Positions 21,307 to 34,113 of a DNA stretch of 64,000 nucleotides are shown here, piece after piece (the stretch's first letter is position 1; each line of letters starts with the position of its first letter). This stretch comes from a virus. Lineage: Duplodnaviria; Caudoviricetes. The DNA lies in IMG/VR virus record IMGVR_UViG_3300033405_000003, one strand, 5' to 3'. Position numbers and translations under genes: made by a program. The notes under the pieces are model-generated. The model was not told where the DNA came from. It made no database searches and saw only the letters and a program-made list of their open reading frames with translations.

Positions 21307-23088
21307 ATGGCGATCAGAATCAAGCGTGGGCCCGTCGTCCTCATCGCGATCCTCGGTGCAGTGGGACTCTTCTTCGGCATCCGGGCCGTCGTCGGCAAGA
21401 TGCCCGGACATGAGGCCGAGGTCCCGAAGACGGCGGAGCTGCCGACGCTGAAAGAGAACACCGTGCAGAGCGCGTCGGTCCCGAAGACGCCGCTCCCGGG
21501 CACCGTCGCTACTGGCAAGGGTACGGACGTGCGCGCGATGGTGTGGGCGTGGAACGCGCAGATGGGCCTGCTCTACGCGAACGGCGGCGCCGACACGACG
21601 CAGGGCTCGCTCATGGCTGCACGCAACGTGAACCTCCACTTCACCCGCGAGGACGACACCAGCAAGATGGCCGCTCAGCTCATGGCCCTCGCGAAGAACG
21701 TCGCCAAGAACATCGAGGGGACGGACGGCGTGCACTTCATCACGCTCATGGGCGACGGCACTCCGAGCTGGTTCGCTGGGCTCAACGCGGACCTGAAGAA
21801 GATCTGCGCCGACTGCACCGCCGAGACCGTCGGCGTCCTCGGCTACTCGCGCGGCGAGGACAAGTTCATGGGCCCCGCCGAGTGGAAGGACAGCCCGAAG
21901 AAGGCCCAGGGCGCGCTCATCGCCGGCGTGATCCGCGACGGCGACTGGAACGTCGCCATGAAATGGGCCGGCGACAACGGCATCCTCAATAACCCCGACG
22001 AGACGACGTACGACCCCGACGCGCTCAACTGGGTGAACGTCGACAACTTTCTCGAGGCCCCGAAGAAGTACATCCTCGGCGTCTGCGAGGACCGTCCCGT
22101 CGTGCACCAGGGGCGCCGCACGGGCCAGACCAAGAACGTGTGCGTGAACGCCGTCGTCACGTGGACGCCCGGCGACGTCAACGTCGCGCAGCAGAAGGGC
22201 GGCCTCCAGTCGATCGTCTCGACCAAGGAGTACCGGAGCCAGATGCCGTGCGCGCTCATCGGCATCAAGAAGTGGGATCGGCTCCACCGCGACGTCGTCG
22301 AGGGCATCCTCCAGGCGTCCTTCGACGCGGCCGACCAGGTCCGCGCGTACCCCGACGCGCTCGCGCGCGCCGGCGAGATCAGCGCCGCCGTCTACAAGGA
22401 ATCCGACGGCCCGTATTGGGTTCGCTACTTCAAGGGCGAGACCGAGAAAGACAAGCAGGGGCTCATGGTGCCGCTCGGCGGCTCGTCGGTCTCGGACCTC
22501 GCCGACAACGCGCAGGTCTTCGGCCTCGCGCCCGGGTCCGTGAACCTCTTCGCCGCCACGTACACGACCTTCGGCGACATCGCCGTCCAGCAGTACCCGA
22601 AGATCGTGGGGAGCTACCCGCCCGTCTCGGACGTGCTCGACACGTCCTACGTCGAGGACCTCCTGAAGAAGGCTCCCGTCGCGACCACGTCCGCGGACGT
22701 CGCCACGTTCAAGAGCGGCGCTGCCATCACGAGCGTCGTCTCGAAGAAGAGCTGGAGCATCACGTTCCAGACCGGCAGCGCCGCGTTCTCCCCCGACGCG
22801 CAGAAGACCCTCGACGCGCTCGAGAAGGACCTCGTCATCACCGACCTCGTCATCGAGATCGACGGCCACACCGACAACACGGGCGACGCGTCCGGCAACA
22901 AGGCGCTCTCGCAGAGCCGCGCGAACGCGGTCAAGGACTGGCTCATGAAGCAGTCGACGACGAACTTCCCCGCCGACCGCTTCACCGTCAAGGCGTTCGG
23001 GCAGGACAAGCCCGTCGCGACGAACGACACGGAAGCCGGGCGCAGCAAGAACCGCCGCGTCGACGTCATCATGGGCACGGCGGAGTGA
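21307..23088 (+). CDS. Substrate-binding protein fused to OmpA-like domain
   Basis: N-terminal anchor; [26 protein letters not shown]. Confidence 0.9.
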
Positions 23089-23848: not shown

Positions 23849-24688
23849 ATGCGTTCATCAAACAAGTCCATCAATCTGAAGCTGCCCTCCATCGAGGCAC
23901 ATAGTGCCTGCTACGCGCTCATCGGTACCGGTCCGATGCTGGTCCACGCATTCGGCCAGAAATCGTTCACCGAGATGCTCGAAAAGATGGTCGGCTGTCG
24001 CCAGGACGGTACGCCTCTCGACTCTGAACGCGAACCCAAGGATCTCGAGCGCGAGTTCGTGGACGCCCACGCATTCAACGAGCGGGGCGAGGAGGTGATC
24101 CCTTGTCGATGGATCAAGGCCGGTATGCTCACGGCCGTCGCCGCGAGTCGAAAGCAACTCAACGCTTCGGCGATGCGGCGCGCGGTTCGCGTGACGGGCT
24201 TCACCTCTCCCATCCTCGACCCAAAGGGTCGCAAGGCCGCCACAGCCGAACTTCAGCACGACGTCGTCCGCGTCGGCTCTTGGTCGAACCGCACTCCCGA
24301 CGTCCGCGCACGGCCGCGCTACGATGAGTGGATGATCGAAATCGTCGTCAAGGTGATCGTCGATCAGGTTCCCATGGAACACGTGGCCTGGGCGCTCTCC
24401 GCCATGGGCGAGCTGGTCGGTCTCGGCGACTGGCGAACGGAAAAGAACGGTGAGTACGGCTTTTTCAAGATCAAGGGCCTTCACGTAAACGAAACCGATC
24501 GCATCATGAAGGCTTGCTCTTCACCCGAGCGTAGGCTCGTCATCCCGCCCGCACTCATGACGGCAATGAAGACCAAGGGCATTACCCAAGCTCAGGTGCA
24601 CGAAGAGATGGAGCGCATCAAGGGTGGTGGCAAGAACAAAAGCAAGAGCCGCTCGAACGGTGCTCAGTCCCACGGCGAAGTGTCATGA
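23849..24688 (+). CDS. Stand-alone RAMP/Cas7-like RNA-binding protein
   Basis: GAAAGGA SD; LIGTGPMLVH, IPCRWIKAGM, RARPRYDEW, Gly-rich loop GELVGLGDWRTEKNGEYGFF. Confidence 0.8.
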   Translation: MRSSNKSINLKLPSIEAHSACYALIGTGPMLVHAFGQKSFTEMLEKMVGCRQDGTPLDSEREPKDLEREFVDAHAFNERGEEVIPCRWIKAGMLTAVAASRKQLNASAMRRAVRVTGFTSPILDPKGRKAATAELQHDVVRVGSWSNRTPDVRARPRYDEWMIEIVVKVIVDQVPMEHVAWALSAMGELVGLGDWRTEKNGEYGFFKIKGLHVNETDRIMKACSSPERRLVIPPALMTAMKTKGITQAQVHEEMERIKGGGKNKSKSRSNGAQSHGEVS

Positions 24689-25275
24689 CGTCGACAAAGA
24701 AAGGGGCTCGCGTCAACAAAGTGCGGGCCCCTAGGATCACTGCGAGGGGCAAATACACGGTCGAAGAGATCCGTGAGGCCTGGATCATCTTCACCGAGAT
24801 GACTGGCGGCGGAGATTGGCGAAACTCGCTCACACCCGAGTTTGTGCTCGAACAGGTGCTCGCCGACAAGTCACACCCGTTGAGGCGTTACCTCGAACGT
24901 GACGTCGAGAAGGCTGCTCATCAACATTGGATCAGCCAAATCGGCCATCTGATGAATGAGGTCCGCATCTCAGTCATCGTCACTCAAGAACCTGGCAAGG
25001 TCATCCGCGTGCAGACGCGTTCGCTCGTGCACATGCCGAGGACCGCGACTCGCGACGCGGGGCGCCGCCCTCTCCGGCAGATTCGCAAAACGAAAGAGGA
25101 TCGTGACGCTCTGGCAAGGATTCGCGCGCAGTATCTACGATCCTGGGTCGGAGCGACCGAGGCACAGCTCGCCGCCATCGATGCCAACCAGTCAGCGCTT
25201 GTGGCGTTGCTTTCAGATGTGAAGCGAGCGCTCAGGCGCTTCGACGACTCTCTCAACATCGATGCTGCTGAATAA
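24685..25275 (+). CDS. Partner protein of the RAMP locus
   Basis: ATGA coupling to RAMP gene; LTPEFVLE...HPLRRYLERDVEKAAHQHW. Confidence 0.75.
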   Translation: MTSTKKGARVNKVRAPRITARGKYTVEEIREAWIIFTEMTGGGDWRNSLTPEFVLEQVLADKSHPLRRYLERDVEKAAHQHWISQIGHLMNEVRISVIVTQEPGKVIRVQTRSLVHMPRTATRDAGRRPLRQIRKTKEDRDALARIRAQYLRSWVGATEAQLAAIDANQSALVALLSDVKRALRRFDDSLNIDAAE

Positions 25276-25282
25276 CGTAAGA

Positions 25283-26030
25283 ATGGACTGTAATAGGGGA
25301 AAGGAAGGGACAGGACTGGACGGTATAGGAGTGGAACGGCCGGTAACGGAGCCGACAGGAGAGTAATGGATCGACAGGAGAGTAATGGATCGGCCGGTAA
25401 ATGGAACTGATTGGAAGCGAGCGGAACGGACGTGGCGGGATCGGTGTGGAGCGGATCGGCCGGTAATGGATTGGACGGGACATGAACGTATTGGAGTCGA
25501 AGTGACAGGACTGGCCGGAAAAACGGAATGTATCGTAGGGGAACCGAACGGAACAGAATCGAACGGACCGGCCGGAAATGGAATCGATGGGAATGGAGTG
25601 ACGAGGAAAGGATCGTAAGGGATAGGACAGGACCGGAACGAGAATTGGTCGGAAAATGGATAGGAGCGAGCGGAGGCGTGAGGGAACGAAGCGGCCGGTC
25701 AAAAGGGAGCGGATGGAGAGGAATGGAGAGGAAAGTACAGGAACGGTTGATAATGGAACGAAGACGACCGGACTGGCCGGAAAAGCGGAATGTATCTGGA
25801 GAGGATAGGATAGGAAAGAAGGGAACAGGATCGGCCGGATAGCGGAATCGAGAGGACAGGCCAGTACAGGGAACGGACCCGATAGGAGGCGAGTCGACTG
25901 GAGTGGAAACGGAAGGGCCGGAAGAGGAATGAAATGAATGGACTGGAGCGGCCGGAGAACAGGAACGGAATCGATCGGATAGGAAGCGATCGTATCGGAC
26001 GGGAGTGGAAAGGCCGGACAGTGGAAAGAA
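25283..26030 (+). repeat. Non-coding NN-GGA pentamer array with GGCCGG punctuation (putative guide-RNA array)
   Basis: 5-nt periodicity; exact GGCCGG at 25338, 25392, 25458, 25513, 25570, 25693, 25775, 25833, 25916, 25950, 26012 and GGTCGG at 25647. Confidence 0.9.
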
Positions 26031-26067
26031 GCGAGATCACTTCTCTACGAAGGATGGAAACCTGAGC

Positions 26068-26220
26068 ATGAGCAAAACGGCAAGAATCGAATACGACGAC
26101 GACGTGCTCAACATCATCGTCGCTGTCAACGAGATCCTGAAGGATCGCAAGCTAGAGGTCATCTTCGATGGAGAAGAGCACGATGGGTTCGAGATCATCT
26201 TGTTAAAGGACCTTTCCTAA
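26068..26220 (+). CDS. Small acidic protein
   Basis: Coupled to permease start. Confidence 0.55.
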   Translation: MSKTARIEYDDDVLNIIVAVNEILKDRKLEVIFDGEEHDGFEIILLKDLS

Positions 26221-26999
26221 TGGCCTTCCGCGACGCCTGGATCCCCAACGGTCGCGTCTCGAAGCGCGTGCACTTCATTCTCGGTGCTGGCACCGTTGCG
26301 CTCTTCTTCATCGCGTGGGGCCTGCGACCGACGTTCATGCCCGGACCTATGGACGTTCTTCGCGCGTACCCGCGGCTCGCGGACCAGGGACTCGCTCAGC
26401 AGCTCTTCGTGAGCCTCACGACAAATTTCCAGGCCATCGGTCTTTCGTGTCTGCTCACGATTCCGCTCGCGTACCTCACGGTGCTCCCAGCCGCGAGGCC
26501 CTTCGTGCGCACGCTCTCGAAGATGCGTTTTTTGGGACTCACGGGCCTCACGGTCGCCTTCACGCTCGCCTTTGGCGGCGGCCACGCGCTCAAGGTCGCG
26601 CTCCTCGTGTTCGGCATGGGCGTCTTTCTCGTGACGAGCCTCTACGACGTCGTCGAGGCCATCCCGAAGGAAGAGTTCGACCACGCGCGCACGCTCCGCA
26701 TGTCGCCGTGGGGCGCCGTCGTCGAGATCGTCGTGCTCGGCCATCTCGACGCGGTGCTCGACGCCGTCAGGCAGAACGCGGCGATGGGCTGGGTGATGCT
26801 CACGCTCGTCGAGGGTCTCGTCCGCTTCGAGGGCGGCCTCGGCTCGATGATGCTCGCCGAGGACAAACACGTCGCGCTCGATGCCGTCTTCGCGATCCAG
26901 CTCCTTGTCCTCGTCGTCGGCGTGCTCCAGGATCTCGCGCTCTCGTGGCTTCGGCGCATCCTCTGCCCGTATGCGAGCCTCACGCTGGAGCGACAATGA
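26220..26999 (+). CDS. ABC transporter permease (NitT/TauT-like)
   Basis: Multiple TM; EAA-like EEFDHARTLRMS. Confidence 0.9.
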   Translation: MAFRDAWIPNGRVSKRVHFILGAGTVALFFIAWGLRPTFMPGPMDVLRAYPRLADQGLAQQLFVSLTTNFQAIGLSCLLTIPLAYLTVLPAARPFVRTLSKMRFLGLTGLTVAFTLAFGGGHALKVALLVFGMGVFLVTSLYDVVEAIPKEEFDHARTLRMSPWGAVVEIVVLGHLDAVLDAVRQNAAMGWVMLTLVEGLVRFEGGLGSMMLAEDKHVALDAVFAIQLLVLVVGVLQDLALSWLRRILCPYASLTLERQ

Positions 27000-27220
27000 C
27001 GGAACCGTCGAAAAAGACACACGGCGCTGACGCACTCGACTCGATGCTCCCGACTGAACTACTCACAATCGCCGGGTGGCTGGAGGCTCGCGTGAAAGAG
27101 ATGAGACCCGACCGCTCTTCCATCCAAGAAGAATACGGCTGCGATCTCGTCATGCTTCTCGACAATCTCGCCAAATCCATCCTCCTTGACCGGGCAGAGA
27201 AGAAGGCGAAGTCCAGATGA
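26996..27220 (+). CDS. Hypothetical protein
   Basis: ATGA coupling on both sides. Confidence 0.55.
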   Translation: MTEPSKKTHGADALDSMLPTELLTIAGWLEARVKEMRPDRSSIQEEYGCDLVMLLDNLAKSILLDRAEKKAKSR

Positions 27221-27624
27221 ATCCCAAGCAGCTCAACGACGCCATCGACCAGTACTTCACACTCGAGAAAGCCATCAAAGAGGCTCTCGGGTGGGTCGAC
27301 AGTTGGAAAGTGATCCCGCTCGAGGATGAGCGCGATTCCTACTGGATGGTTGCCGGTGGTGACAAGCTCACTGGCAGGGGCTCCTCGATTGTTCGTTCGC
27401 CGAAACCCATCACGTCGGCCATGGCCGAGGAAGGTAAGGAGATCTACAGCGGCCACGTCTACACCCAGCGCGACCACGACTGCTGGATCCTGAGAGCCGG
27501 GAACGACGTGCTCGTCCCAGTCGACACGCAGACCGACGGCAACATTTTCCTCTACCTGCTCGACGCCGCGAAGGAGATTCACGACGTGGATGCCGAACAG
27601 AATTATCTCGAGTGCTGGGGTTGA
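27217..27624 (+). CDS. Hypothetical protein
   Basis: ATGA coupling. Confidence 0.65.
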   Translation: MNPKQLNDAIDQYFTLEKAIKEALGWVDSWKVIPLEDERDSYWMVAGGDKLTGRGSSIVRSPKPITSAMAEEGKEIYSGHVYTQRDHDCWILRAGNDVLVPVDTQTDGNIFLYLLDAAKEIHDVDAEQNYLECWG

Positions 27625-27651
27625 GAATCACGAAAGAGAAGGAGAGAGAAC

Positions 27652-28026
27652 ATGATCAAGGGTCAAGTCCATTCGAAGTTCAAGGTGTTCATCTCAGAAG
27701 CCGGGATGCCGTACGGAGATGCGATGCACAAGATCGCCACCGAGGTCGAGAAATTCTCTTGTACCGGTACTACGGCGATCAAGAGTGTGGGTGTCGAGTA
27801 CCTCGAAAGCTCGAAGCAGCTCGTGCTGTCACTCGGTTATCGCGACGGCGAGACGGGTTATCCCGTCAAGCTCACGACTGTTTTGCTCGGTTCTCTCGAT
27901 CTCGATCCCGAGGAGATCGAGGAGATGATGAGCAAGACAGCGGACACTGTCGAGAACGTCATCTGCCACGAGTTCTTCGTCACGGGCGACGGTCAGTTCG
28001 TGATGGTGCTCCTCTCGCACGGATGA
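27652..28026 (+). CDS. Hypothetical protein
   Basis: AAGGAG SD. Confidence 0.7.
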   Translation: MIKGQVHSKFKVFISEAGMPYGDAMHKIATEVEKFSCTGTTAIKSVGVEYLESSKQLVLSLGYRDGETGYPVKLTTVLLGSLDLDPEEIEEMMSKTADTVENVICHEFFVTGDGQFVMVLLSHG

Positions 28027-28029
28027 CAA

Positions 28030-28896
28030 GTGCAAATCGAGGCTTTTCATCCGATCGGGCAGAACGGTGCTCGCGTCTCCTACGAGTTGAAGGACGTTCT
28101 CGTCAGCATCAAGGACATCGGACTCGCGTACGGTGGCAGGCCCATCCTCGCGAACCTCTCGGCGGAGGTTCGCGACATCGTTCGACCGGGTTGCGTGACG
28201 GGGCAGGTCGTCGGCATCCTCGGACCGTCGGGTGTTGGCAAGACGCAGCTCTCGCGCATCATGACGGGCTTGCAGGAGCCGACGTCTGGCGAGATCCGCG
28301 TCGGAGCCGGTGACAAGAGCGAGAGAGTGCACGCGGGGCTCGTCGGCTACGTCGCGCAAAAATATCCGCTCCTTCGACACCGCACGGTGCTCGGCAATCT
28401 CGTCACAGCATCGAGACGCGCGGGCGCAAGTGCGGCGGAGGCGAAGGACAAGTCGATGGACTTCCTCAAGCGCTTCGACCTCTCGGACAAATGGGATAGC
28501 TACCCGGCGGAGCTTTCTGGCGGCCAGCAGCAGCGCGTCGCCATCGCGCAGCAGCTCCTCTGCTCGGAGCACTTCCTCATCCTCGACGAGCCGACGACGG
28601 GGCTCGACCCGCTCATGAAGGACAAGGTCTGCGCCCTCGTCCGGCAGGTTGCTTCGATCTCGGAGGAGAACACGATCTTCGTCGTGACGCACGACATCGC
28701 GGCCATCCTCACGATCGCCGATCATCTGTGGCTCCTCGGGCGCGACCGCGACGCCCAAGGCGCTTCGCTCGGCGCTCGCATCCAGCACCACTACGACCTC
28801 ATCGAGCGCGGGCTCGCATGGCGCGACGACCCGCAGGCGCTGCCGGCGTTCGCGGAGACGATGCGCGAGGTCCGCGCGAGGTTTCAGGAGCTATGA
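28030..28896 (+). CDS. ABC transporter ATP-binding protein
   Basis: GPSGVGKT, LSGGQQQRVAIA, LILDEP, VTHD. Confidence 0.95.
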   Translation: MQIEAFHPIGQNGARVSYELKDVLVSIKDIGLAYGGRPILANLSAEVRDIVRPGCVTGQVVGILGPSGVGKTQLSRIMTGLQEPTSGEIRVGAGDKSERVHAGLVGYVAQKYPLLRHRTVLGNLVTASRRAGASAAEAKDKSMDFLKRFDLSDKWDSYPAELSGGQQQRVAIAQQLLCSEHFLILDEPTTGLDPLMKDKVCALVRQVASISEENTIFVVTHDIAAILTIADHLWLLGRDRDAQGASLGARIQHHYDLIERGLAWRDDPQALPAFAETMREVRARFQEL

Positions 28897-29327
28897 GCGA
28901 GCGCACGCAGACCCTCGAGAACGCCGCGTCGCGCGCGCTCCTCGACTTCGTCAAGGATCCGACCGAGGCCAAGGCCAACGCAGCCGACAACGTCGTCTGG
29001 CGCATCGCCGAGGCCGTGGTCGCCAAGGTCGCCGAGAACCTGACGAGCGAGATCGAGGCCGTACGGCGCGTCGCGTGCGCCGAGCCCACCGAGACGATGA
29101 CGAACGCCGTCAAGCGCCTCGCCCGCGAGCGGGACGCCATCCACAAGAAGTACAGGAAGGCCCAGGAGGCCTGGGAGGAGGAGCGGCAGAAGACGGAGGT
29201 CGTCATCGAGGCCGCGTACGAGTTCGCGGACTCCCTTTCGGACGAGCACTCCTGCAAGCGCGACGGGGACGAGTGCCCGAGGTGCCGGCTCGTCTACGCG
29301 CTCGGCGATCTCGAGGAGGAACCATGA
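28893..29327 (+). CDS. Hypothetical coiled-coil protein
   Basis: ATGA coupling. Confidence 0.6.
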   Translation: MSERTQTLENAASRALLDFVKDPTEAKANAADNVVWRIAEAVVAKVAENLTSEIEAVRRVACAEPTETMTNAVKRLARERDAIHKKYRKAQEAWEEERQKTEVVIEAAYEFADSLSDEHSCKRDGDECPRCRLVYALGDLEEEP

Positions 29328-33038: not shown

Positions 33039-33611
33039 TCATGATGGCGTCACCTCGACCCTCTTGACCTTCCTCACGAGCAGGTACCCGACGACGCCGA
33101 GCCCGGCGAGCAGGGAGGCCGCGACCACGGCCCCGCCGACCTTCGAGGCCGTGGAGCGGAACGCGAAGAGTTCCTTGAGCGTGCTCTCGCCCGTGTCGAG
33201 CATCCCCTTGCCGATGGGGAAGAGCTTGTCCGCGTAGTGCTGGAGGCTCGCCGCCGGCGTCTTGCTGCAGATGGTGCAGCCCCAAGGCGAGCCCGCGACG
33301 GCGCGGAGCGTCTCGTCGGGCGGCGCGCTGCGCTTGAGGGCTGCCGTGATGGCGCTCATGTTCGACTGCGCGAGCGTCCTCGCGGTCGCCTCGATCCCCT
33401 GGTCCCAGCTCGAGTATGCCTGCACGCCGACCGGCGTCACGGGGTGGCTGCCGGGGAGCTTCAGCGTCGTGTTGATGGGGTTGTAGGCGGCGGCGTTCGC
33501 CATGTGCCCGCCCTCGTTCGCCTGGAACGCGACGAGCGCGGCCACGTTATTCGCGCTCTCCGGGAGCCCGAGCCGCGCGAGGACCGCGTGCGCGAAGTCG
33601 GACGGGGTCAC
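33039..33611 (-). CDS. Lysozyme-like protein with C-terminal TM
   Basis: QANEGG...YNPINTT...VQAYSSWDQGIEATARTL...SPW. Confidence 0.6.
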   Translation of the reverse strand: MTPSDFAHAVLARLGLPESANNVAALVAFQANEGGHMANAAAYNPINTTLKLPGSHPVTPVGVQAYSSWDQGIEATARTLAQSNMSAITAALKRSAPPDETLRAVAGSPWGCTICSKTPAASLQHYADKLFPIGKGMLDTGESTLKELFAFRSTASKVGGAVVAASLLAGLGVVGYLLVRKVKRVEVTPS

Positions 33612-33612
33612 G

Positions 33613-34113
33613 TCACACCCCCGCGGCGTGGGCGGCCTGCGCCGTAATCGCGCCGCGCTCGCGGGCGGGGCCGATGAGCGCGAGGGCCTTGTTGTACTCG
33701 CGGTTCGTGAGCGCCGGCCCGAACGGCGAGCGCCGCCGCTGCTGCACGACCCGCGTCGCAGTCCTGCCGTCGCAGCCGGTCATGCGCGCGAAGGTGAGCG
33801 CCGCGACGAAGCCGGATCGGTTCCGGCCCTGCATGCACGTGACGAGCACGCCCTTGTGCCTCCGGAGCGCGGTCGTGAGAGCCTCGGAGGCCGCGATCGA
33901 TCGCGCGATCTGCGCGTGGGTGAGCGGCGAGCCGTCGTCGATGAGCGGCACCCGGACGACGTACATCCCGGGGAACGCCTCGTGCGGCGGTTGGTGCTCC
34001 TCCGCGCAGAGCGCGAGCACGGAGAACCCGGTGCTGGCGAGCGTGTGGCCGGTGGGCGGGGCGCTCCCCACCCAGAGGCCGTCGCAGATGAAGCTGGCGT
34101 CGATGGTCCGCAT
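33613..34113 (-). CDS. Dual-specificity/tyrosine phosphatase
   Basis: VLVTCMQGRNRSG (CX5R), LWVGS, PLIDD. Confidence 0.85.
   Translation of the reverse strand: MRTIDASFICDGLWVGSAPPTGHTLASTGFSVLALCAEEHQPPHEAFPGMYVVRVPLIDDGSPLTHAQIARSIAASEALTTALRRHKGVLVTCMQGRNRSGFVAALTFARMTGCDGRTATRVVQQRRRSPFGPALTNREYNKALALIGPARERGAITAQAAHAAGV

Follow-up and report, generated by a model that had tools for sequence, protein, structure and literature searches.

What does a virus encode in a gene-free run of about 760 nt in which two variable bases and the trinucleotide GGA alternate every five nucleotides? The run lies in a 64,000-nucleotide stretch of the IMG/VR virus record IMGVR_UViG_3300033405_000003 (Duplodnaviria; Caudoviricetes), and this whole stretch is termed the window. 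It is bounded by the stop codon of a plus strand gene (25275) and the start of the next plus strand gene (26068). The run was read as a guide-RNA (vrRNA) array of a VIPR (Viral Interference Programmable Repeat) system in a large peat virus. The probability of this reading was put at about 0.9, based on sequence comparison and a predicted protein structure. VIPR was described in bioRxiv preprints of 2026 (10.64898/2026.04.26.720920; 10.64898/2026.04.26.720927; 10.64898/2026.10.15.759431), the second of which is the cryo-EM study. In the published systems a phage encodes a minimal RAMP protein (Vipr) together with an accessory gene (vap), and the vrRNAs consist of 9-16 GGY/NN pentamers that end in a 3' tail (10.64898/2026.04.26.720920). 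Each repeat is held by one Vipr protomer, with GGY buried and the two variable bases (NN) exposed (2026 VIPR preprints). The NN pair with double-stranded DNA and every third target base is skipped, which is the 1-nt skip rule (10.64898/2026.04.26.720920). By protein homology and architecture the present locus belongs to the VIPR family. The concept is known and the locus is a GGA-repeat variant of it. The features of the locus are listed in Table 1.

Table 1. Positions of the VIPR locus, its delimiters and selected guides, and the flanking genes in the window.
Feature	Position	Strand	Description
vipr gene (gene A, P0005)	23849..24688	+	279 aa; Vipr/RAMP (Cas7-like) protein, by profile and fold
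vap-like accessory gene (gene B, P0002)	24685..25275	+	196 aa; 4-nt overlap with the vipr stop
vrRNA array	25283..26030	+	about 139 NN-GGA pentamers making about 12-14 guide units
GGCCGG delimiters	25338, 25392, 25458, 25513, 25570, 25693, 25775, 25833, 25916, 25950, 26012	+	11 copies
Degenerate delimiters	25647 (GGTCGG), 25745 (GGTTGA), 25859 (GGCCAG)		one in each of three long intervals, by eye
Tandem copy in the array	25353-25392		perfect, 19 nt
Guide 'kinase VALK'	25401..25457	+	12 NN
Guide B	25466..25512	+	10 NN: AT TT CG CA AC TT GT AG CA CT
Guide 25523-25569	25523..25569	+	10 NN: AC AT TC GG AC AC AC AT AC CC; possible tail-fibre target
Guide A	25960..26011	+	11 NN: CA AC AT TC TA AG TC TC CG GT AA
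OmpA-domain protein gene	21307-23088		593 aa
50-codon open reading frame	26068-26220	+	Shine-Dalgarno-like GGATGGA
ABC-transporter permease-like and ATPase genes	26220-28896

A profile built from 137 gene A homologues matched one PDB sequence, 36pp_D 'SUSP1 Vipr protein' (E=1.2e-17). The same profile matched the SUSP1 gene in KT454805 using hmmsearch (E=2.6e-22). Exhaustive profile search gave 2227 homologues of gene A, which also matched phrog_4652 and had no Pfam match. A first model based on a 7-sequence alignment had a predicted local distance difference test (pLDDT) score of 56 and was too poor for use. The AlphaFold model made with the 137-homologue alignment had a pLDDT of 91.7. The best PDB folds to this model were the type III and type VII Csm3/Cas7 RAMPs (Foldseek E~1e-6). 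The G-loop D194-W195-R196 aligned with D177-W178-R179 of SUSP1 Vipr and the thumb residue R155 with R138. R155 and R196 were invariant in 137 of 137 homologues. In this alignment the guanine-contacting residues of SUSP1 Vipr (D177, W178, and R138) are kept in gene A. As judged from sequence and modeled fold, gene A is homologous to Vipr. Peptide patterns of gene A and gene B gave no close relatives in IMG/VR.

Homologues of gene A were found in soil and peat metagenomes, at loci L001 (89% identity), L003 (58%), and L002 (54%). The window and these three loci share the order vipr, adjacent gene, array. Gene B matched phrog_15946 and had no Pfam match. It has a homologue directly after vipr in L003 (37% identity, E=3e-41) and in L002 (38% identity, E=5e-29), where this conserved partner is 184-206 aa. 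The gene after vipr in L001 is 194 aa and matches gene B in size. No similarity between gene B and SUSP1 vap1 was found by BLASTP.

The stretch following gene B is 73% purine and contains 87 GGA motifs. Autocorrelation was 0.48 at lag 5 compared to 0.19-0.32 at lags 1-4. A phase-tracking parse gave 139 units with the logo N, N, G (0.77), G (0.83), A (0.88). The original prediction had described a pentamer array here. The array is real but the extent given to it was too short, the true start being approximately 120 nt earlier. GGA-NN stands before every GGCCGG copy, and an A-rich 4-mer comes after it. The guide units abut, with GGCCGG and about 4 A-rich nt as the sole separators. Each unit has approximately 7-12 repeats, compared to 9-16 in the published vrRNA criterion. 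The NN were consistent with independent, near-uniform bases (chi-square 9-12 on 9 degrees of freedom). The locus thus has tandem 5-nt repeats of a fixed trinucleotide and hypervariable NN beside a vipr gene, as expected of VIPR. A survey of the whole window found no second array of this type.

The density of GGA motifs also raises the idea of a protein-sequestering 'sponge' RNA, either a GGA sponge of the CsrA/RsmA type or a TRAP-like multi-site RNA, in which the NN would be mere spacers. The purine-rich, unstructured RNA and the near-random NN are in keeping with this, and RNA folding of the array compared to shuffles gave no significant structure (z=-1.5). The adjacent conserved gene is, however, a Vipr/RAMP and not CsrA or TRAP. 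The GGA motifs are not in hairpin loops, and an Rfam search of positions 24500-26800, covering the CsrB/RsmX/Y/Z families, found no family at E<=1. Vipr-linked arrays elsewhere have this strict 5-nt register and delimiter grammar too, and the exact match of one guide depends on skip length (see below). A sponge is thus very unlikely. Once gene A had matched Vipr, a TRAP-like 11-mer ring binding 11 pentamers was set aside, as were a CsrA sponge, telomere-like repeats, and a centromere or packaging site.

The arrays of L001, L002, and L003 are also composed of NN-GGA units with GGCCGG delimiters. Modal delimiter spacing is 51-57 nt and the NN are unrelated. The module is therefore conserved while its NN content turns over. 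Across the four arrays of this clade, the third fixed base was A in 70-94% of units. No guide was common above chance to the window and L001, despite the 89% identity of their Viprs. This turnover agrees with reports that the NN positions of VIPR arrays are hypervariable. The L003 array has a looser pentamer grammar and keeps a GGCCGGA spacing of 51-52 nt. Segmental copies were seen inside the arrays of L001 (7772-7811/7988-8032, 14/14 NN) and L002 (1854-1918/1990-2034, 13/14). Given these and the tandem copy in the window array, the arrays apparently grow by segmental duplication.

Such internal duplications could also mark a stretch with no function, either a decaying microsatellite-like pentamer expansion or a low-complexity protein gene on the minus strand. 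No plus strand open reading frame (ORF) spans the window array. Minus strand ORFs of 149 and 113 aa lie over it, and a 358-aa minus strand gene call (1675-2751) lies over the array in L003, which is more than 1 kb long. The window ORFs are a composition artefact because the pyrimidine-rich strand has no stop codons; ORFs of this kind are expected there. The L003 call is most likely spurious, with the same stop-free strand as its origin. A 5-nt period is also incompatible with conserved coding. Across Viprs of 54-89% identity the grammar, orientation, and position of the array are kept and its sequence is not, which makes a non-functional stretch scarcely plausible.

The locus was compared to the SUSP1 type II VIPR. 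In KT454805 this comprises vipr (28474-29061), vap1, and four vrRNAs, each a GGT/GGC-NN run with a hairpin tail of about 40 nt. Both loci are in viral genomes and encode a homologous Vipr RAMP with the G-loop D-W-R and the thumb Arg. Both have a small gene directly downstream of vipr, a putative accessory gene in the window, and 5-nt guide units made of a fixed trinucleotide and two variable bases. A 1-nt skip with the wobble base skipped is also shared, in silico and for guide A in the case of the window. SUSP1 Vipr is 195 aa compared to 279 aa in the window, where there are extra N-terminal residues and a helical, basic C-terminal extension. Each SUSP1 vrRNA ends in a hairpin/pseudoknot tail while the window guides are split by the delimiters. 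There are 12-14 guides in one array in the window compared to 1+3 in SUSP1, and the window has no vrRNA upstream of vipr. Published 'staggered' arrays without tails are possibly comparable to the window array.

The closest relatives in cultured phages were the Vipr homologues of Gordonia phages UmaThurman (gp39), Pipp, ODay (gp19), and Ecliptus (phrog_4652), with 22-24% identity (E 1e-10 to 2e-9). Flanks were read in UmaThurman and ODay. In both a canonical GGY-NN array directly follows the Vipr homologue. The coding sequence of UmaThurman gp40 (NC_031249, 33362-33685), annotated 'hypothetical protein' and following gp39, coincides with a GGY-NN run at about 33354-33661 (L010:3117-3424). The gp40 gene call probably marks a vrRNA array and not a true coding sequence.

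The backbone proteins Cas7/Csm3 of Class 1 CRISPR share with VIPR the RAMP fold, one protomer per short RNA period, and thumb-induced base flipping. The VIPR period is 5 nt with two bases read while that of CRISPR is 6 nt with five. The window guides are degenerate pentamers, and the locus has no repeat-spacer array, cas1/cas2, Cas10, or Cas8. The repeats are limited to 5-nt units and 6-nt delimiters and no cas genes were present among the neighbors, so the locus is not CRISPR-Cas.

If the published mechanism applies, vipr, the vap-like gene, and the array probably form one transcription unit. The array would be cut into units of approximately 50-60 nt at or near GGCCGG. Vipr protomers would polymerise along each unit, one per pentamer, with GGA buried and the two variable bases exposed. 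The exposed dinucleotides would pair with one strand of double-stranded DNA, with every third target base flipped out. A guide of 8-12 units could then cover about 24-36 bp and read two of every three bases, the unread base being the wobble base in coding targets. Genes of competing mobile elements, or other targets, would be transcriptionally repressed on binding. That Vipr forms filaments, binds DNA, and silences is carried over here by analogy with the published SUSP1 and P. fulva work, and processing at GGCCGG is inferred for this variant. Most natural VIPR targets are coding sequences in which the skipped base is the wobble base, so that synonymous mutation offers no escape (10.64898/2026.10.15.759431). 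They include satellites, prophage regulators, and other VIPRs (2026 VIPR preprints).

The original prediction had reached a similar scheme from the NN themselves. It proposed that the NN, reverse complemented and read as the first two codon positions, spell protein motifs, and that guides pair with the coding strand two bases at a time and skip the third, so that synonymous changes cannot escape, with competing mobile elements and host kinases as the likely targets. Pairing of two bases with one skipped is the established rule of VIPR (10.64898/2026.04.26.720920), and the same argument on synonymous escape has been published (10.64898/2026.10.15.759431). The systems described so far are not specific to the coding strand, and can bind either strand of double-stranded DNA. 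By analogy with these systems the core interpretation is supported, and the observation overall was partly confirmed. The wobble-skip idea was already in print from April 2026. The wobble-aligned code with a 1-nt skip had been reconstructed from raw sequence alone, and was correct though no longer new. The decoding into protein motifs held for one or two guides and not for the array as a whole.

Guide A decoded to [FL]TR[DE][DE]LY[DE][IM]V[CW] exactly as claimed, which had been taken as LTREELYEMVW. Its gapped 22-base pattern had two matches in genome_contigs (596 Gb) and one further match in metagenome_contigs. All exact matches were in frame on [LF]TREELYEMVW at the N-terminus of one family of uncharacterised proteins of approximately 380-400 aa, as the original prediction would have it. 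At a 1-nt skip guide A matched 22/22 bases in L005, L006, and L008, 21/22 in L044, and 20/22 in L045. All five matches were in frame on [LFI]TREELYEMVW, so that the gap always fell on codon position 3 and the skipped base was the wobble base. In an other-gap control on the same five genes, a 0-, 2-, or 3-nt skip gave 13-16 of 22. No exact match of guide A was found in IMG/VR (viral_contigs). The exact gapped patterns of four guides, including guide A and the 'kinase' guide, likewise gave no match in viral_contigs. No member of the LTREELYEMVW family is encoded in the 64-kb window.

Guide B decoded as claimed to [SR][CW]LT[KN]V[CW]R[KN][IM] and had been linked to the same helix-turn-helix (HTH)-like family. 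This held for one member. In the L006 gene guide B matched 15/20 bases (14/16 in the core), in frame, at codon 31 (VWLAKVCRKN), 16 codons downstream of the guide A site. Shuffled guides reached 15/20 in 12/2000 trials at the gene level and in 25/300 at the locus level. The other four members of the family were not matched by guide B. A guide similar to guide B was found in the distant L003 array (2714-2758), with 12 of 14 bases common, a value reached in 1/300 shuffles. The two differ as codons by L/V, K/Q, and K/R. Guide B was the only guide common above chance to the window and any relative's array.

Genes of the LTREELYEMVW family lie beside ResIII-type helicases of approximately 940-1025 aa in L006 (431-4400) and L045 (1-2810). 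In L044 (881-2116 and 11893-13038) the family gene is beside a HEPN_Toprim_N protein and an ImmA/IrrE-type gene (Peptidase_M78 and HTH). Two weaker matches in a search with the N-terminal domain of the family (P0178 and P0179) were annotated as integrases. This neighborhood suggests a mobile or defence context. The family genes and their neighbors may form a defence or mobile-element module, to which no function is assigned.

The other decoded motifs were less informative. The 'kinase VALK' guide decoded as claimed to [DE]AT[DE]RRVAL[KN]V[IM], but its full pattern had no match in viral_contigs, and the four-residue likeness to VALK carries no weight for a host kinase target. In the segment ending at 25916 a T[RS]TP[Y]GV core was re-derived, with flanks that differ from the LV and L of the original prediction. 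Its reading as a terminase STPxG motif, like the kinase reading, rests on 4-5 residues and is unsupported. The 9-NN pattern of guide 25523-25569 had 20 exact matches in IMG/VR, 12 or 13 of which were in frame on TISGTTTIT in tail-protein genes (phrog_8763, Collar domain). This target was not found in the window. One guide was tested for self-targeting on the 64-kb window and had no match within 3 mismatches.

Control searches limit how far these matches can be taken. Guide 25523-25569 in shuffled order (18 bases) had nine IMG/VR matches, four of which were in frame in long ORFs. Given this control, a tail-fibre target is suggestive only. As a shuffled pattern also gave in-frame matches, an exact gapped match found in a very large database is weaker evidence than it seems.

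The array could therefore belong to VIPR while the LTREELYEMVW match is a coincidence of a 596-Gb search and the decoded motifs are uninformative. The shuffled control allows for this, as do the match of guide B to one in five family members and its locus-level null. The guides of the L001-L003 arrays had no match above chance to the family. The exact guide A matches were in phyla unlikely as hosts of a peat virus of 65-70% GC. Set against this, every exact 22-base match was in frame and hit a single conserved motif at the N-terminus of one family. Guide B fell on the same domain, in frame, with the gene-level null given above, and is the only guide kept between distant arrays. Published VIPR guides likewise converge on conserved coding motifs of single genes (10.64898/2026.04.26.720920; 10.64898/2026.10.15.759431). 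Coincidence is on balance unlikely. Given the caution on exact gapped matches, the LTREELYEMVW family is regarded as the probable target class and not as a near certain one.

Several observations weigh against the array being a working VIPR guide array of the published kind. The exact guide A targets were in a Bacteroidota metagenome-assembled genome (MAG), a Gammaproteobacteria MAG, and a short contig, none of them an identified host. A clean target class was obtained for only one guide and a moderate one for one other, and the shuffled control matched as described. The NN of the array are not protein-like in either reading direction. Published VIPRs target both strands, and this is therefore no argument against the mechanism. 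A structured 3' tail or pseudoknot of the SUSP1 vrRNA kind was not found in the array. The window sequence was contained in six sequencing runs, all of peat metagenome DNA, with no RNA run among them. The fixed trinucleotide is GGA here and GGY in SUSP1. Purines are excluded from the third-base pocket of SUSP1, and the scaffold substitutions for which loss of silencing is reported include GGY>GGA (10.64898/2026.04.26.720920; 10.64898/2026.04.26.720927). The published mechanism therefore cannot simply be transferred. The literature admits 'a related consensus' besides GGY (10.64898/2026.04.26.720920), and GGA therefore marks a variant and not an exclusion from VIPR.

The pocket residues offer a candidate explanation of the GGA repeat. 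E71-M72 of the SUSP1 pocket aligned with R87-W88 of the window Vipr, and the corresponding residues in the Gordonia phages are L-G and V-A. Trp at this position was present in 16/137 homologues. It occurred with A as the third repeat base in the window, L002, and L003 (GGA) and in L012 (CGA-NN). It was absent from L014, UmaThurman, ODay, and SUSP1, all of which have GGY. The co-occurrence of Trp and A was 4/4 versus 0/4 in readable loci, which represent only about two independent lineages. An Arg87-Trp88 pocket may recognise A at the third fixed position.

In L012 (3672-4224) a Vipr homologue (P0043) is followed by a 550-nt NN-CGA array with CGCAGTA delimiters. This Vipr has Arg-Trp at the pocket, and Asn at the position of window H33, which is His in most homologues. 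The first repeat base is C. The H33 residue and the first repeat base possibly covary; the alignment lacks the SUSP1 N-terminus, so that the correspondence of H33 to the G1-contacting H17 lies outside its range. Non-canonical VIPR repeats are named in 10.64898/2026.10.21.760802 and in the methods of 10.64898/2026.04.26.720920 (GAC/NN, CAC/NN, WGT/NN, TGH/NN, NNNGG, YNNNG, and NNNNG). They come from divergent Vipr-linked 5-nt arrays in which, as in the window, the fixed trinucleotide is not GGY. Neither GGA/NN nor CGA/NN is named in the text of these two preprints, and their figures or supplementary tables may list them.

It is possible, and proposed here tentatively, that the window clade and L012 form an undescribed VIPR lineage with a purine-holding pocket, tail-less guides, and an HTH-like gene as the silenced target. 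In such a lineage Arg87-Trp88 may replace Glu71-Met72 of SUSP1 in a pocket rebuilt for a purine. The guides may lie head to tail with GGCCGG, which contains a canonical GGC unit, as the sole separator. Tail-less guides would imply a different mechanism of processing or filament capping. At least two guides may silence the uncharacterised HTH-like gene found beside ResIII helicases, a HEPN-Toprim protein, and ImmA/IrrE-type regulators. VIPR might then be aimed at a regulator of host defence or of a mobile element, and not at a phage satellite.

VIPR, discovered only months ago, is a second way of recognising DNA with an RNA guide and has been proposed as ancestral to the CRISPR RAMPs. A natural GGA clade with an Arg-Trp pocket offers a ready test of how Vipr reads scaffold bases. 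A GGA Vipr and its guides are possibly an orthogonal pair for multiplexed tools. Among the guide architectures seen so far, a tail-less array with 6-nt delimiters would be the most compact, which prompts the question of what sets the bounds of a unit.

The 50-codon ORF downstream of the array starts 38 nt past the last GGCCGG and has no family match. The locus is flanked by the OmpA-domain protein gene on one side and the ABC-transporter permease-like and ATPase genes on the other. OmpA-domain and ABC-transporter genes are unusual as viral auxiliary genes, and the contig looks very large.

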